Assembly: GCA_964633875.1 (NCBI GenBank)
Contig: CAZWKL010000002.1
Span: 89,338 to 151,302 of the forward strand
Direction: 5' to 3'
Source: an uncultured Pseudomonadales bacterium
GTDB taxonomy: Bacteria > Patescibacteriota > Microgenomatia > UBA1400 > PJMF01
Length of the DNA: 61,965 bases
Every line of letters begins with the position of its first letter. Position 1 is the stretch's first letter. The position numbers and the translations under genes are program-made. Positions 17,605 through 59,877 of the stretch are shown in pieces. The notes under the pieces are model-generated. The model worked only from the letters and a program-made list of their open reading frames with translations. It was not told where the DNA came from and did not search any database.

Positions 17605-18552
17605 CTAACTACGTAGATAATTTTTTCTTTCTGCCACCAAAACTCCCAAGAAAACTACCAGCAGCGCCACAATTTGCACCGGGTGGATGCCTTCATTCAG
17701 CATCAGCATGCCCAAGGGCAGATAAATCAGCGGCTGCAAGTAATTGAAAAGACTGGCCTCAGACGCCTCCAACACTTCCATGGCCTTGATCAGCGCGGTG
17801 TAACCAATGATCGAGCCAAAAGTGGCCATGTAAATTGCCGCGGTCACTACACTGGGCGCGGCCAGATCTGTTTGAATCGCCGCGGTCAAGGCAGGGAAGG
17901 AAAAACCGGCTTCCACCCAGCTCAAAATCGCGAAACTTACCAGGCCGACATAAAAACTCAGCGAGCTGGCCAAAAGTTTGGGAATTTGCCGGTAGTATTT
18001 TTTGGTGAGCGGATAGTAAAAACCGTTCAAAATCAGGCTAAAAATAACTAAAAAATTACCTAGCAAAGCAATTTCTCCCAACGCCTCGTTTTCGGTGAAG
18101 AGCGGCACTAGAGACAGAACCAGCGTGCCCAGAAAAGCAATCGTCAAGCCCATTGACTCATTTTTCTCCAGCCTCTCCTTAAAAAGCAGCACTCCCACCA
18201 GAGTAATAAAAAGCGGCTGAGTGGTGCCAAGCAAGGAGGCCTCAATACCGCTGGTCCGCTGCAGACCGGTGTACAGGAGCCAGAGAGTGAAGGTAGTGCC
18301 GAGCAGCTCAATCAGGGTAATGTGGATGATGTTCTTTATGGATGGCTTGGCCCGGTGCCAAAAATAAAGCAAAATCGGCAGACCGATAGCGGCAGCCAGC
18401 ACATAGCGGTAGAGCAAAAAGCGGTAGGGGGTAGTCACATCCAGGCCAGGTTTGACAATGATCAGCGCCGCGCCCCAAGTGATGGTATTGACGATCATGA
18501 AGAGATAAGCGCCCAGGCGGGACGGTATTTTGAGTGGCTGCTTTTTTGTCAT
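17605..18552 (-). CDS. DMT/EamA family transporter
   Basis: About 10 TM helices in two repeats; TWG, YTGLQRTS..EASLL, P...LPLG..L.E motifs; start placed at MTKKQ. Confidence 0.88.
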   Translation of the reverse strand: MTKKQPLKIPSRLGAYLFMIVNTITWGAALIIVKPGLDVTTPYRFLLYRYVLAAAIGLPILLYFWHRAKPSIKNIIHITLIELLGTTFTLWLLYTGLQRTSGIEASLLGTTQPLFITLVGVLLFKERLEKNESMGLTIAFLGTLVLSLVPLFTENEALGEIALLGNFLVIFSLILNGFYYPLTKKYYRQIPKLLASSLSFYVGLVSFAILSWVEAGFSFPALTAAIQTDLAAPSVVTAAIYMATFGSIIGYTALIKAMEVLEASEASLFNYLQPLIYLPLGMLMLNEGIHPVQIVALLVVFLGVLVAERKNYLRS

Positions 18553-18565
18553 CTGGAGTCGGTTT

Positions 18566-19813
18566 CTACCTGGCGGATAAAATCTGGCCAATCAGTTCCT
18601 CAACTGTCAGTAATTCTTGTTGGCCGGTTTGCATATTTTTCAGAGCTACTTTTTCTGCCTCGATTTCCTGCTCACCGATGATAGCCACAAAGGGAATTTT
18701 CTTCTGATCTGCCAACTTGAACTGCTTGCCGAGCTTGTCTGGTTCAGGGTAAATTTCTGTTTTCAAGCCGGCCGCGCGGAGCTTGCTAGCTAGTTGCAAG
18801 GAATTTTCTATATATTGTTCGTCGAAAAGAGTAATTAGGAGATCGGCGCTGCGGTTGTTGAACTCAAGTGTTTGGAGCTGCATGGCGGCTTCAACAGTTC
18901 TGTCAAAACCAATGCCAAAGCCAACCGCCGGCAGCCGTAATCCGGAAAGGTTTTCTATGAGTTGATCATAACGGCCACCACCACCCACCGAACCAACAGT
19001 GTATTCGGGAATTCTAGCTTCAAAAATGAGGCCGGTGTAGTAGTCCAAACCGCGAGCCAACTTCGGGTTAAATTTGAGGGCTGACTCAGGTACACCTAGT
19101 GCTAAAACATTGTTTGCAATTTTCAACAAATTGCTTGACATTTCAATGTTATTGAGAGTAATAAAAAGCTCGTCGGCAGCAGCTTTGCTCAGACCTTTGT
19201 CCATGAGTTCAGCCGCAATTTCCGCCTCAGATTTTTTGTCTAATTTGTCAACAGTTTGCACTAAAGAAAAGACATCAACGGTTTCATTGGCAAAAGGCGA
19301 GAGCGCGGTGAGCAGAGTTTGCCGGTCGTTGATTTCCAACACCACCGAAGTTAAACCGAGCGAACGGAAAACTTCGTAAAAAACCGCTAAAATTTCCGCG
19401 TCCGCTACCTGCGAGGTAGTGCCAAAAATGTCGCAATCACACTGAGTGAATTCTCGGTAACGTCCGCGCTGCGGCTTATCTGCCCGGAAAACATTTTGAA
19501 TCTGGTAGCGCCGGAAAAATTTAGGCAGTTGGGACTGATATTGGGCCAGCACTCGAGAAGAGGGCACGGTTTGATCGTACCGCAAGCCAACCTCCCTCCC
19601 GCCTTTATCCTCAAAAGTGTAAACCAATTTGTCTGCTTCCTGGCCATAATTGCCCAGCAGCAGCTCGGCATACTCGAGGGTGGGGGTTTCTATGGGTTCA
19701 AAGCCAAACCTTTCAAAAACCTCACTCATTTTTTTGGCCACAAAATCCCGAGCCCTTTTTTCTTCAGGGAGCAAGTCGCGAAAACCTTTCAGAGTTTGTA
19801 CAGTATTTTTCAT
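18566..19813 (-). CDS. hisS: Histidine--tRNA ligase
   Basis: KGFRD, LRYDQTV, FRADKPQRGRYREF, RGLDYYTG, GGGRYD, GFGIGFDR. Confidence 0.97.
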   Translation of the reverse strand: MKNTVQTLKGFRDLLPEEKRARDFVAKKMSEVFERFGFEPIETPTLEYAELLLGNYGQEADKLVYTFEDKGGREVGLRYDQTVPSSRVLAQYQSQLPKFFRRYQIQNVFRADKPQRGRYREFTQCDCDIFGTTSQVADAEILAVFYEVFRSLGLTSVVLEINDRQTLLTALSPFANETVDVFSLVQTVDKLDKKSEAEIAAELMDKGLSKAAADELFITLNNIEMSSNLLKIANNVLALGVPESALKFNPKLARGLDYYTGLIFEARIPEYTVGSVGGGGRYDQLIENLSGLRLPAVGFGIGFDRTVEAAMQLQTLEFNNRSADLLITLFDEQYIENSLQLASKLRAAGLKTEIYPEPDKLGKQFKLADQKKIPFVAIIGEQEIEAEKVALKNMQTGQQELLTVEELIGQILSAR

Positions 19814-19882
19814 CTTTATCCTTTAATCTAATTATTGTAACATTTGTGGCCTTGTTTGACGGGGTGCAGAGAGGAGGGCAAC

Positions 19883-19903
19883 AAAAAACTCCCCAGAGGG
19901 AGT
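19883..19903 (-). terminator. Intrinsic terminator of the putative hisS attenuator
   Basis: Minus strand ACTCCC-TCTG-GGGAGT followed by TTTTT. Confidence 0.7.
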
Positions 19904-19944
19904 GTTTGCAAATTGGCCAAGGTATATAATGTCAAGTTATAGAA

Positions 19945-20022
19945 TTAGGCACAGCGAACCACTCCCGGCTGATGGTTGGGATGATGGCAAACCAAGCTAA
20001 TACTGTCAGTAATACAGGCCAT
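19945..20022 (-). CDS. Putative His-containing leader peptide MACITDSISLVCHHPNHQPGVVRCA (25 aa)
   Basis: ATG 6 nt after the -10 of a TTGACA-17-CATAAT promoter; CAT codons at 13, 14 and 17; overlaps the antiterminator segment. Confidence 0.55.
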   Translation of the reverse strand: MACITDSISLVCHHPNHQPGVVRCA

Positions 20023-20028
20023 ACTTCA

Positions 20029-20057
20029 ATTATGAGCCTATAATATGGAAATGTCAA
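20029..20057 (-). promoter_or_regulatory. Sigma70 promoter driving the leader peptide/hisS
   Basis: TTGACA (20057-20052), 17-nt spacer, CATAAT (20034-20029). Confidence 0.65.
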
Positions 20058-20083
20058 GTCATGCCAAATAAAAACATGTTAAT

Positions 20084-20272
20084 ATGAAGTATATGTTAAA
20101 AACCCAGCCACATCTTCCAGAAAAACAACTTCATTCTGCGACTACTTTGCTCAAGTTGAAAGCAATTGGTGAAGCAAATAATCTCCATGGTCCAAAAGAT
20201 CTCTCTGAAAATATGGATGAGTATTTGTGGGGAAAGAAGGTATGGCAGAAAAATAGTGGTAGTAGTATTTGA
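20084..20272 (+). pseudogene. Orphan VapB-type antitoxin remnant
   Basis: C-terminal GPKDLSENMDEYLWG resembles the DLS..D.YLYG tail of PIN-associated antitoxins; overlaps a toxin-like start. Confidence 0.45.
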
Positions 20273-20318
20273 TAAGTTTTATAGCCAGCAAGGTTTTACT
20301 CTGGTTTCAGAATTGTAA
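20242..20318 (+). pseudogene. Collapsed PIN/VapC toxin remnant (MAEK-frameshift-IVVVVFDKFYSQQGFTLVSEL*)
   Basis: ATG at 20242; the shifted frame 20253-20318 gives a VapC-like C-terminal FD..Y...GF.L motif; the middle of the gene is absent. Confidence 0.4.
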
Positions 20319-20391
20319 GGGCCTGTAGCTCAGTTGGTAGAGCGCACGATTCGCATTCGTGAGGTCAGGGGTTCGACTCCCCTCAGGTCCA
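20319..20391 (+). tRNA. tRNA-Ala(CGC)
   Basis: Cloverleaf with GGGCCTG/CAGGTCC and G3:U70, anticodon stem CACGA/TCGTG, loop TTCGCAT, TTCGACT T-loop; CCA not encoded. Confidence 0.95.
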
Positions 20392-20395
20392 CGGC

Positions 20396-20460
20396 GGATT
20401 TTTTACCTGTTTCTCACTGCGCGGCTGTCGCAAGCTTCGTTCGAAACATATAAAAAATCC
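20396..20460. repeat. 65-bp palindromic REP/MITE-like element
   Basis: Terminal inverted repeats GGATTTTTTA/TAAAAAATCC plus TGTTTC/GAAACA, enclosing a GCTGTCGCAAGC core. Confidence 0.45.
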
Positions 20461-20478
20461 AACATTAAATTTGAAATA

Positions 20479-20505
20479 AACTTTGTTGCTGTTGCAAGCA
20501 AAGTT
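20479..20505. terminator. Hairpin between the tRNA and the convergent peptidase gene
   Basis: AACTTTG-TTGC-TGTT-GCAA-G-CAAAGTT. Confidence 0.5.
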
Positions 20506-20508
20506 CGC

Positions 20509-21579
20509 TTAAGTTAATTCTTTTACTTTTTTTCCCAGCAAAACCGTGTTTTCATGCCGATAACCAAACTCGCCAGGCAAATAAATGCCTGGCTCAATCG
20601 TTAAAACCATGCCAGGTTGGAGCGGGGTGTCGTTCAGCCAACTCAAAGAAGGCTGTTCATGGATAGCCAAGCCCAACCCATGTCCGGTGGTGTGAATAAA
20701 ATTTGAGCCGTAACCCTGGCCAGCGATGTAATTGCGCACCTCCCAGTCGAGGTCTTTGGCGCTCAGGCCACCGCCGCCACCCAAATCGCCCAGCTTTTCC
20801 AAGGCCACTTGATAGGCCGCCTGCACCACCTCCTCAACTTCAACAAATTTTTCAGCCGGCCGATTGCCAAACCAAAAAGTCCGAGTCATATCACTGCAGT
20901 AGCCTTGGTAAGCAGCGCCGACATCAGTCAGGACCGGCAGGTTCTTCTTCAGTTGAGCGCCGGTAGGCTGGTGATGGGGCAGCGCTGTGTGTTCTCCAAA
21001 AGCCACAATAGTAGGAAAAGCCGGCCTCTCAGACCCGAGCGCTCGCAAACTTTCCTCCAGCATTTGCTTCACTTCCAGTTCAGTTATGCCCGGTTTCAGC
21101 CGCGCCGTCACTTGCTTCAGGGCCGCTGTAGCAATTTGGCAGGCTTTTTGGATTGAAGCAATCTCATCAGCGGTTTTCACCGACCGCAAGCTCCAGACAA
21201 TATCTCTATCCAGGCCGGTAATTTTCAGCCCTCCAAGCTCCCGCACCGCTTCAAACTCGCTCACAAAAAGGGTGTTTTTATCGATCTTCAATTCCTGAAT
21301 TCGCTCTCTACCAATAATTTGCTGCAGCTTTTTCTTCAAGGCTTCCGGATAGCAGCCGGGGACAGCCTCAATCCGGGCATGAGCTTTGACAGGAGAAAAA
21401 TTGGCATGGAGCAAAGTGGCGGATTTTCGGGTCACTAATAATAGCGCCTCGCGCTCTTCAGGCACTAAAATTTCAAAATGGGAAAAATAACGGATATCAC
21501 CGGCATTACTCAACAATAGGGCTGTCTTGGCGGGAATTTTGGCTTGCAGTTTTTCCAATTGGTGCATCTTTGAGACCAT
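20509..21579 (-). CDS. M24 family aminopeptidase P / Xaa-Pro peptidase
   Basis: RSVKTADEI, LPHH, DVGA..GYCSDMTRT, HTTGHGLG, TIEPGIY, GYRHEN. Confidence 0.93.
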   Translation of the reverse strand: MVSKMHQLEKLQAKIPAKTALLLSNAGDIRYFSHFEILVPEEREALLLVTRKSATLLHANFSPVKAHARIEAVPGCYPEALKKKLQQIIGRERIQELKIDKNTLFVSEFEAVRELGGLKITGLDRDIVWSLRSVKTADEIASIQKACQIATAALKQVTARLKPGITELEVKQMLEESLRALGSERPAFPTIVAFGEHTALPHHQPTGAQLKKNLPVLTDVGAAYQGYCSDMTRTFWFGNRPAEKFVEVEEVVQAAYQVALEKLGDLGGGGGLSAKDLDWEVRNYIAGQGYGSNFIHTTGHGLGLAIHEQPSLSWLNDTPLQPGMVLTIEPGIYLPGEFGYRHENTVLLGKKVKELT

Positions 21580-21586
21580 CTTGAAA

Positions 21587-22321
21587 CTAGAGCTCATTGT
21601 CAGAGTCTGATTTGAGTGGCGCCAGCGATTTGATAGTGCTGGCCCTGGCGTTGCCGGTCTCATTTTCAAAACCAACTATAAGAATGGTCATATCAACATC
21701 AAAACCGCTCCAGAGAGCTTCATTGCCTTGAAAATCTTGCAGTTCTGTGGTGGTGGCTACGGTTATTTCACGCTCGCCACTGCCATCGCGCGGGCTGATG
21801 GTCACAGAGTTTCTGGTAATTTCAGTAATTGTGCCTAAAACCACCACCTGAGGATCAGTGCGCAGAGACTCCGAGGAAACAACAATAAACTCCGGAGTGA
21901 TGGTTTTATCATTAACCGTCCCCATGATGGTCACCCAGTTATCAACGGCGATTTCATCTACCTTAATGGCTTGACCATCTTTCATCAGCAGCGCGTTAGC
22001 CAGAGGGAAAATTTGCTGACCATCGTTGTGGCGGATGGTGAGCGCCTCATCAGTAATACGTTGCACCTCGCCGATCATGGCCTTTTTGCCGCCGTCGGTT
22101 ACGCCCCTGACCTTGGTAGCTGTTTCTTTGACTAATTCTTTGATGTTGTTGGTGACGGTTTCGTCAACTTCTTCGTTGTTTTCGTTTGAGGAAGCTGAGG
22201 CCGTGGAGCTAAACAAGATTTGCGCCGTTACCCGCTGCTGAATCAGGGTGGCAGTCAAGGTAGTAAGGATGAAAAAAACCAGTAAAATCAGAGTAAGATA
22301 GAATGTTGATAATTTAATCAT
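21587..22321 (-). CDS. Hypothetical membrane-anchored protein with repeated beta-rich (OB-like) modules
   Basis: N-terminal TM helix; two G.V..I....TI beta repeats. Confidence 0.65.
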   Translation of the reverse strand: MIKLSTFYLTLILLVFFILTTLTATLIQQRVTAQILFSSTASASSNENNEEVDETVTNNIKELVKETATKVRGVTDGGKKAMIGEVQRITDEALTIRHNDGQQIFPLANALLMKDGQAIKVDEIAVDNWVTIMGTVNDKTITPEFIVVSSESLRTDPQVVVLGTITEITRNSVTISPRDGSGEREITVATTTELQDFQGNEALWSGFDVDMTILIVGFENETGNARASTIKSLAPLKSDSDNEL

Positions 22322-59454: not shown

Positions 59455-59877
59455 ATGCACAAAAAGAAGCAAGGCAGCCGCGGTTTTACCCTCCTTGAAC
59501 TGTTGGTGGTGATTTCTATTATTGGTATTTTGATGGCCATGGGGGTGGTGGCCTACTCAACGGCGCAAAAAAAAGGCCGCGATGCCAAGCGGCGCGCGGA
59601 TATGAATGCCTTGCAAACCGCTCAGGAGCAGTATTATGCGGCCAATAATGGGACTTATGCAAATCCAACTGATGTTTTAGCAGATGAGGGGTATATAAAC
59701 TCCGTGCCAAGTGATCCAAAGCCATCGCCACATATACAATATAATTTTAGACACAATCCTCCAGGGACATCATACTGTTACTGTGCCCGTTTAGAAGAAT
59801 CTACGGGGAATAGCGGCAGCATTCAGTGCACTTGGGGTACAAACGATATTTATTACTGTGTGGAACAGCTGCAATAA
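59455..59877 (+). CDS. Type IV pilin-like protein (GspG/PilA-like)
   Basis: G/FTLLELLVV; RDAKRRAD; DP motif and Cys pairs. Confidence 0.88.
   Translation: MHKKKQGSRGFTLLELLVVISIIGILMAMGVVAYSTAQKKGRDAKRRADMNALQTAQEQYYAANNGTYANPTDVLADEGYINSVPSDPKPSPHIQYNFRHNPPGTSYCYCARLEESTGNSGSIQCTWGTNDIYYCVEQLQ

Follow-up and report, generated by a model that had tools for sequence, protein, structure and literature searches.

In the stretch of DNA analysed here (the window, 61,965 nucleotides of contig CAZWKL010000002.1), the hisS gene for histidine--tRNA ligase on the minus strand is preceded by a promoter, a short open reading frame (ORF) with three histidine codons and an intrinsic terminator, and the locus raises the question of what such a unit does in front of an essential gene. 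The earlier note, made from the letters of the window, had read it as a leader-peptide attenuator with the classical 1:2, 2:3 and 3:4 pairings of four RNA segments. Our work supports this idea: Conserved His codons, covarying helices and an exclusive linkage to histidine genes indicate that the element is very probably a ribosome-mediated leader-peptide transcription attenuator that would sense charged tRNA-His and tune the expression of hisS, and probably that of the EamA gene overlapping it. The start of transcription, the translation of the leader, the stalling of the ribosome and the regulatory outcome are what we infer from the sequence.

The leader element and its predicted switch

The unit begins with the promoter P1, which was found by reading the sequence and by a promoter scan. 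Its -35 hexamer TTGACA (20057-20052, minus strand, as are all features of the element) is separated by a 17-nt spacer from the -10 hexamer CATAAT (20034-20029), and with 11 of 12 consensus positions P1 is the best promoter-like site in the scanned 3.3 kb (18500-21800). The ATG codon at 20022 opens a leader ORF of 25 codons and a stop codon (20022-19945, stop codon 19947-19945) that encodes the peptide MACITDSISLVCHHPNHQPGVVRCA; it was left unannotated in the public assembly. Histidine codons occupy positions 13 and 14 (19986-19981) and position 17 (19974-19972) of this ORF. Since the -10 box ends 6 nt before the ATG, the ORF would be leaderless or nearly so on a transcript that starts from P1. 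We found the promoter, the start codon, the three His codons, the complementary segments, the terminator and hisS exactly where the earlier note had placed them.

Two mutually exclusive structures can be drawn downstream of the first His codons. Segment 2 (GGGAGUGGU, 19966-19958) lies inside the leader ORF over the Gly-Val-Val codons and begins 20 nt after the first His codon. It can pair either with segment 1 (GCCAU..UCCC, 19988-19978), which covers the codons Cys12-His13-His14-Pro15 and is the 5' arm of the 1:2 anti-antiterminator in the minimum free energy (MFE) fold, or, through its 19966-19960 part, with segment 3 (CACUCCC, 19904-19898): GGGAGTG and CACTCCC are perfectly complementary over 7 bp. 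Segment 3 is thus the 3' strand of the antiterminator, and it overlaps the 5' arm of the intrinsic terminator ACUCCC-UCUG-GGGAGU with its U-run (segments 3:4, 19903-19883), which was detected in a terminator scan, was evaluated at -8.8 kcal/mol and whose 21-mer occurs a single time in the window, with 0 matches expected. The 2:3 helix encloses an inner hairpin (UAUAA-CUUGACA-UUAUA, 19941-19925), and relatives also have an inner hairpin that does not keep this sequence. The 1:2 helix (pairing with GGGA-GUGGU) was evaluated at -9.4 kcal/mol, the 2:3 helix at -10.95 kcal/mol alone and at -18.6 kcal/mol with the inner hairpin; scored as a duplex, 2:3 reaches -13.2 kcal/mol as compared to -4.6 +/- 1.8 in shuffled sequences. 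The earlier note had assigned segment 1 to AACCAT (19977-19972). The corresponding helix with GUGGUU (19962-19957) can form and has been preserved in close relatives of the window as well, and RNAalifold recovered it as CCAU:GUGG together with the terminator in a weak consensus (-3 kcal/mol) of six subtype-A leaders. However, it amounts to only -3.8 kcal/mol, and segment 1 across the family is formed by the His13-His14-Pro15 codons, so that we take the helix between 19988-19978 and 19966-19958 to be the one that is homologous to the rest of the family.

The downstream gene (19813-18566) encodes a protein with the Pfam domains tRNA-synt_His and HGTP_anticodon that scores 397 bits with TIGR00442 (cut-off 287) and stays below the cut-off of the hisZ model. 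The score above the TIGR00442 cut-off and the presence of the anticodon-binding domain identify the gene as hisS rather than hisZ. Its Shine-Dalgarno sequence AAGGA (19823-19819) lies 5 nt ahead of the ATG at 19813. The terminator does not overlap this sequence, and we have therefore rejected translational attenuation as the mode of action.

Based on this arrangement, we propose the following mechanism. Transcription from P1 would start at or a few nucleotides from the leader AUG, and a ribosome would begin translation at once. If His-tRNA(His) is plentiful, the ribosome would pass His13 and His14, cross segment 2 and reach the stop codon, so that segment 3 could pair with segment 4; this would give the terminator, and transcription would end near 19883. 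If His-tRNA(His) is scarce, the ribosome would stall when the codon of His13 or His14 occupies its A site, and would thus cover segment 1. The size of the ribosome footprint is general knowledge, and a ribosome stalled at either codon would occupy the transcript up to about nt 49-55, with segment 2 (nt 57-65) remaining free. Segment 2 could then pair with the emerging segment 3, no terminator would form, and RNA polymerase would enter hisS. A stall at His17 would partly cover segment 2, and a ribosome at the stop codon would already have passed it. In the complete absence of translation, both 1:2 and 3:4 would form, resulting in termination as well.

The element of the window taken alone is not beyond what chance can produce, and its significance comes from conservation. 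If the unit were a chance combination of a short ORF with a promoter-like site and a hairpin in AT-rich intergenic DNA, one would expect such parts to be common in the region, and this is indeed the case: five promoter-like sites were seen as compared to 3.7 +/- 2.0 expected, and nine terminator-like sites as compared to 4.3 +/- 2.3, both near chance; moreover, the fold z-scores are unremarkable. Two further candidates for a leaderless short ORF followed by a terminator turned up in a window-wide search, at 59733(-) and 6043(-), and both were dismissed as they lie inside real genes. The comparison with other genomes speaks against such a coincidence: The architecture is conserved in 47 leaders and down to about 50% identity of the histidyl-tRNA synthetase (HisRS), and the enrichment, duplex, covariation and non-CPR control statistics described below point in the same direction. 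A chance arrangement is, thus, so improbable that we do not consider it a serious explanation.

A family of leaders in Patescibacteria

To put the element into context, hisS loci from species-representative genomes and metagenomes were compared; they are labelled by L-numbers. In the later species-representative listing, 80 of more than 574 relatives were examined, and each scan covered 80 loci. The taxonomy of the relatives was taken from the titles of the records, which name Pacebacteria, Shapirobacteria, the 'Patescibacteria group' or the 'Microgenomates group'. Many contigs that have HisRS and gene order of the Patescibacteria type (L001, L002, L004, L043 and others) are filed under implausible titles, for example 'uncultured Pseudomonadales', 'Gammaproteobacteria', 'Calditrichaceae' or 'Weeksellaceae', and these labels look unreliable.

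At least 47 distinct leaders of shared architecture (31 and a later set of 16) were found upstream of hisS in contigs of Patescibacteria. In the sampled species-level genomes of this group, 43 of 119 have the leader. The specificity of the association was assessed in two ways. (i) A first script that looked for short ATG ORFs with at least three His residues in seven, no more than 400 nt upstream of hisS, detected them in 23 of 54 upstream regions as compared to 28 of 1552 control tiles (p=7e-23, odds ratio 40); none was seen in the 54 antisense regions. (ii) A composite signature demanded a -10-like hexamer, a start codon 4-11 nt further on, an ORF of 8-45 amino acids with at least three His in six residues, and a hairpin with a T-run 25-130 nt past the His cluster. 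In about 165 CPR loci, all matches to this signature were confined to the sense strand upstream of hisS, and in 59 non-CPR hisS loci (310 kb) there was none, even if the promoter requirement was dropped. A scan of metagenomes yielded just three more leaders, none of them from a close relative of the window. When genomes were scanned for the promoter-plus-start pattern, three known relatives were recovered together with one unrelated leaderless gene: In L161 (2375-2700), TTATAGGCTTATAAT-N6-ATG heads a nucleotidyltransferase-like gene whose neighbour resembles, by eye, a HEPN partner. This pattern is consistent with a general use of leaderless mRNAs in these organisms.

The leaders share a common anatomy; examples of their peptides are MKSFILRSAVHHHAHHM, MLQNTILLATHHHSHI, MQKQNAKAPAFHHHSSI, MSNNSTQPVAAHHHHA, MEQLNTVHHHHA and MEKEINNTVLHHHLR. 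In most of the homologous leaders, TTGAC(A/C/T) precedes the -10 box by 16-18 nt, and the start codon follows this box after 4-11 nt in all 31 leaders measured, which leaves no room for a Shine-Dalgarno sequence of the leader. The peptides have 12-25 amino acids in the first 31 leaders and up to 27 in the later 16, and they contain 2-5 His codons. The three His codons of the window, which had been noted as a possible weakness, are therefore normal for the family. Conservation of the peptide is limited to the His cluster, and the N-termini vary. In the first 31 leaders, segment 2 begins 17-32 nt (median 23) after the first His codon, and the stop codon lies 0-5 nt ahead of segment 2 unless the ORF passes through it; the values for the 16 later leaders are comparable. 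In the proposed model, the spacing between the first His codon and segment 2 fits the footprint of a stalled ribosome. All 47 leaders have a hairpin followed by a T-run, and the sequence of the stem takes several different forms.

These features also bear on whether the leader has to be translated at all. The run of CAU and CAC codons is complementary to the anticodon GUG of tRNA-His, and one might imagine that this run and the hairpins are bound directly by uncharged tRNA-His, in the manner of a T-box, or by a His-responsive protein, the ORF being incidental. The switching between terminator and antiterminator is common to such a mechanism and to ribosome-mediated attenuation, and T-box control of hisS is known in Firmicutes (PMC2965389). 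However, a search of 19000-21000 against Rfam at E<=10 revealed only the tRNA, and neither the T-box (RF00230) nor the enterobacterial His_leader (RF00514), which had no match at its gathering score anywhere in the window; likewise, no Rfam family, these two included, matched the leader in 20 related loci. A conserved bulge for the acceptor end (UGGN) was not seen. Moreover, the leaders have the properties of translated sequences: Despite their divergence, the frame is open from the start codon to the His cluster in 47 of 47 leaders, the start codon keeps its distance to the -10 box, the stop codon is positioned beside segment 2, and the His codons vary synonymously between close relatives (CAT CAT CAC, CAC CAC CAT or CAT CAC CAC). 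A switch that works without translation is therefore quite unlikely. The His codons, conserved across 47 leaders that differ in their N-termini, also provide what the earlier note had named as a check on the ribosome-mediated attenuator.

For this attenuator, all three states (the 1:2 hairpin, the long-range 2:3 helix and the 3:4 terminator) are predicted in each of the 25 leaders that were folded by sub-region, and in all homologues the His-codon run forms the 5' arm of the 1:2 hairpin. The 2:3 duplex was found at the same relative place in every leader tested; it is stronger than in dinucleotide shuffles in 14 of 25 leaders and in 9 of 16 of the later set (Fisher-combined p = 4e-16, relatedness ignored). 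The cores of the helices differ between lineages and are nevertheless complementary among segments 2, 3 and 4: GGGAG/CUCCC, GGGG/CCCC, GGCGG/CCGCC, GGAGG/CCUCC and GGGAUGG/CCAUCCC. When segments 2 were swapped, they paired at -11.2 kcal/mol with their own segment 3, at -10.5 with one of the same class and at -8.1 with one of a different class, a modest separation, since all cores are G-rich or C-rich.

A plain MAFFT alignment of all leaders (A1, A2) left the helices out of register. For this reason, we relied on alignments to covariance models and on the duplex analysis of individual loci. Two models were built from five subtype-C leaders, R1 for the terminated state (1:2 + 3:4) and R2 for the antiterminator, and the other leaders were aligned onto them. 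In the alignment for 1:2 + 3:4, 90.6% of the cells are paired as compared to 81.5% in shuffles, 12 of 17 pairs have changes on both sides, and the covariation score of 0.351 (shuffles 0.188, best slid control 0.114) was equalled in 0 of 500 shuffles. For the 2:3 antiterminator, 90.1% of the cells are paired (73.7% in shuffles), nine of ten pairs are compensatory, and the score of 0.317 (shuffles 0.122, best slid control 0.093) was again equalled in 0 of 500 shuffles. Thus, both the 2:3 and the 3:4 helices, for which covariation had been suggested as a check, covary on these family alignments. Given that the alignments are structure-fitted and the leaders are relatives of each other, we take these numbers as support for the structures and not as proof. 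A test of 2:3 on the R1-fitted alignment (A5) was dropped because subtypes C and D are one column out of register. R2, which contains only leaders of other organisms, has a single match in the 62-kb window, and this match is exactly the element (19883-19995(-)). R1 matches subtypes B and D as well as singletons. Taken together, the leaders appear to be a new RNA family of a well-known kind. The window belongs to a subtype in which the leader ORF crosses segment 2 (relatives L001, L002, L042, L017, L032, L207, L233 and L235), and the assignment of its element to the family rests on the shared architecture and on these subtype relatives.

Some leaders show peculiarities of their own. In one subtype, the His run decays stepwise from FHHHxS via FHHN to FHNN while the hairpins and the terminator are kept (L025 147-254, L041 2858-2963, L093 ~1360-1468). 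This decay to Asn may reflect the loss of His sensing, or drift once the regulation had become dispensable. In many leaders, of subtypes C and D, a U-run (GAUUUUUGCG or GAUUUUAG) follows immediately after the 1:2 hairpin, for example in L018 (2905-2925) and L013 (2838-2855); by analogy to the his and trp pause sites, it could be a site at which RNA polymerase pauses and is synchronised with the ribosome. The window subtype is without this U-run. Finally, the leader of L100 (549-700) is followed by two tandem terminators, each a hairpin plus T-run, and only the second is complementary to segment 2.

Genes behind the leader and a predicted second promoter

In the window and at most other loci, the leader precedes hisS alone. 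The exceptions are informative: (i) Genes of histidine biosynthesis follow in several relatives. In L233 (1040-2988), hisG and hisC come before hisS, with 92.9 and 280.7 bits, both over the cut-off; the same order is found in L017 (997-2972), with 75.2 and 272.3 bits just under the cut-offs of 75.75 and 276.55. In L032 (458-2933), a hisG-like gene (34.7 bits with Pfam HisG, cut-off 25.5, only 25.7 with TIGR00070) and a clear hisD precede hisS, and in L100 it is a hisG-like fragment (TIGR00070 38.3 bits, under the cut-off of 75.75). Since the window subtype precedes hisG-hisC/hisD-hisS in relatives, the leader of the window may be a his-operon attenuator that was retained before hisS after the loss of the biosynthetic genes. 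(ii) At four loci, the leader is followed by a gene for tRNA-His(GUG) and then by hisS on the same strand (tRNA genes at L043 2906-2982, L166 2359-2434, L167 2413-2489 and L171 1622-1696). Here, a leader that would sense the charging of tRNA-His appears to control the tRNA-His gene itself. (iii) Other genes found behind the leader encode an M20 deacylase of the ArgE/DapE type (L169 511-1590, L171 1802-2983), a DapF-like protein (L024 2240-3001, also L030 and L057) that is weakly similar to the histidine racemases CntK/HisR (48.7 bits, far under the cut-off), and, in L235, two proteins without any family match. We regard the deacylase, the DapF-like protein and the L235 proteins as candidates for functions in histidine salvage. 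Wherever the genes behind the leader can be named they are related to histidine, hisS is always among them, and in the scanned loci the leader was never seen away from hisS or a His operon. This linkage is hard to reconcile with anything but a His-responsive control element.

The earlier note had pointed to a TGT-TACAAT box below the terminator that could give basal transcription of hisS. Indeed, the window has an extended -10 box (TGTTACAAT, 19842-19834, P2) in the spacer that separates the terminator from hisS, and a TGnTAnnnT motif is found at this place in 11 of the 27 leaders that stand directly before hisS. These 11 comprise all leaders of subtypes A, B and C, the window included. Of 26 relatives that have no leader, 12 also have the motif no more than 70 nt away from hisS, the background being 0.13 per 100 nt. 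Thus, the box is real and conserved, and we consider P2 to be a predicted proximal promoter for basal expression of hisS. Because the TGnTACAAT box is conserved, basal transcription would be part of the design in the window subtype: P2 would provide the basal expression of the essential hisS gene, and read-through from P1 would add an inducible part. The box is, therefore, no refutation of the attenuator model. In subtype D and several singletons, the terminator and hisS are separated by only 27-40 nt without TGnTAnnnT; there, hisS probably depends on read-through, although a weak -10-like hexamer is possible in the AT-rich DNA.

The presence of P2 invites a different view of the unit, namely that P1, the short ORF and the terminator are a small gene of their own that encodes a His-rich micropeptide or a trans-acting small RNA, and that hisS is expressed from P2 only. 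The unit does have its own promoter and terminator, in the window subtype a conserved promoter-like box separates it from hisS, and attenuator RNAs and leader peptides with functions in trans are known elsewhere, e.g. rnTrpL/peTrpL. However, conservation of the peptide does not extend beyond the His cluster, and the antiterminator, which would be useless to a stand-alone gene, is maintained by compensatory changes. Moreover, the unit never occurs away from hisS or a His operon, about 16 of the 27 leaders have no extended -10 box before hisS and some of them have just the short spacers mentioned above, and hisG, hisC or hisD come next in L017, L032 and L233. We therefore give an independent small gene little credence.

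Several observations weigh against the proposed attenuator. The leader fold of the window is not more stable than shuffled sequences (MFE z = -0.36 and +0.93); this test is uninformative here because the switch would be kinetically controlled. The terminator of the window has a short stem of 6 bp (-8.8 kcal/mol). The match of R2 to the element scores only 18 bits (E ~0.43), as compared to 26 bits for L001, a 95%-identical relative, and R1 misses the window subtype even with the filters off. The covariation counts overstate the independence of the changes for the reasons given above. Some leaders are down to one or two His codons, with His replaced by Asn in L025, L041 and L093, and control by His is thus not universally maintained. 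In L207 (483-2246), a leader of the window subtype (MSSMTVLQTNAAHHRPQHKVAGVVFAA) precedes a gene for histidine ammonia-lyase (hutH, 557 bits) upstream of hisS, and induction of this enzyme upon His starvation makes no obvious sense. Finally, P2 could supply all the hisS transcription that is needed in the window subtype.

Known attenuators, possible meaning and neighbouring genes

Control by leader peptides is textbook knowledge for the his, trp, phe and thr operons, and pheM-pheST is the example for a synthetase. The leaders of the Patescibacteria resemble the enterobacterial hisL (RF00514), in which stalling of the ribosome results in read-through: Both combine a His-codon run in a short ORF with the 1:2, 2:3 and 3:4 hairpins and an intrinsic terminator. 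However, they match hisL neither in sequence nor in structure, suggesting an independent family. They have 2-5 His codons rather than seven consecutive ones, their ORF starts so close to the -10 box that a Shine-Dalgarno sequence finds no room, and the gene under their predicted control is always hisS, be it alone or together with tRNA-His or a few his genes. In the window subtype, moreover, the ORF crosses segment 2, and the terminator is followed by a predicted second promoter. The pheST operon of Escherichia coli is controlled by terminator/antiterminator switching under the PheM leader peptide, which is rich in the cognate amino acid. As in this case, an aminoacyl-tRNA synthetase gene stands behind a leader peptide for its cognate amino acid, whereas amino acid, phylum and sequence differ, and pheM has a conventional ribosome-binding site.

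Closer to hisS itself, Naville and Gautheret (2010) predicted by comparative genomics a His leader before a hisS paralogue and hisZ of Bacillus (PMC2965389). This leader also combines a short ORF with a His stretch and a premature terminator in front of a gene of the hisS family, but it belongs to Firmicutes and precedes a paralogue and the regulatory subunit of HisG, whereas the leader described here precedes the housekeeping HisRS; a relationship at the sequence level is not expected. In mycobacteria, leaderless short ORFs with poly-Cys runs control downstream operons in a regulon-wide 'ribulon' (Canestrari et al., 10.1101/834739). These ORFs share with our leaders the leaderless start and the codon run for one amino acid, but their effect is on translation, through the release of a sequestered ribosome-binding site (10.1101/834739), whereas the switch in Patescibacteria is a terminator with a U-run located 27-228 nt upstream of the next gene and clear of its Shine-Dalgarno sequence. 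The T-boxes that control hisS in Firmicutes by antitermination (PMC2965389) would serve the same purpose, i. e. more HisRS when tRNA-His is uncharged; however, T-boxes sense the tRNA directly without translation, and the window and the 20 related loci have no match to them. A search of full-text literature for leader peptides or attenuation in Patescibacteria or the candidate phyla radiation, with incomplete coverage, returned nothing relevant, which agrees with the statement of the earlier note that no such leader has been described in CPR.

We consider it rather likely that the leaders are the first family of cis-acting amino-acid sensors defined in CPR, forming a histidine 'ribulon' on leaderless transcripts in ultra-small, mostly auxotrophic bacteria. 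To our knowledge, almost nothing is known about gene regulation in CPR/Patescibacteria because these organisms are uncultured and have few recognisable regulators, and a conserved attenuator provides a concrete and testable regulatory element for them. If the idea is correct, ribosome-coupled attenuation on leaderless transcripts would operate in these bacteria, and this would imply a tight coupling of transcription and translation as well as the use of leaderless mRNAs. It would also suggest that bacteria that scavenge histidine still monitor the charging of tRNA-His and answer with more HisRS, and in some lineages with more tRNA-His or salvage enzymes. A leader peptide that controls the gene for the very tRNA whose charging it senses would be unusual. 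The ribulon would then consist of hisS, tRNA-His, the remnants of hisG, hisC and hisD, the M20 deacylase, the racemase-like gene, the ammonia-lyase, the proteins without family match and perhaps the EamA transporter, and it could be used to assign histidine-related roles to uncharacterised CPR genes. The leader could thus flag histidine-related genes that have no assigned function, and a new RNA family could readily be seeded with it.

The gene for the EamA-family (DMT) transporter (18591-17605, minus strand) overlaps the end of hisS by 26 nt. In many CPR relatives, an EamA gene is located directly downstream of hisS on the same strand, irrespective of the presence of the leader. The gene of the window is probably co-transcribed with hisS and hence possibly under the same control, and its product is a candidate transporter of histidine or a related metabolite. 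On the other side of the leader promoter, a gene for tRNA-Ala(CGC) (20319-20392, plus strand) is oriented divergently; since it points away on the other strand, the terminator of the leader cannot belong to an upstream gene. A divergent tRNA-Ala(CGC) gene is found at the equivalent place in L001, L002, L014, L021, L024, L038, L042, L051, L191 and L194, and in the window as well as in L002 it is preceded by a gene for an M24 Xaa-Pro aminopeptidase. An ORF of 62 amino acids (20084-20272, plus strand) takes up most of the 260 nt that separate the leader promoter from the tRNA gene. In L001, from the 95%-related genome, a different sequence is present at this place, apparently with a gene of the opposite orientation.

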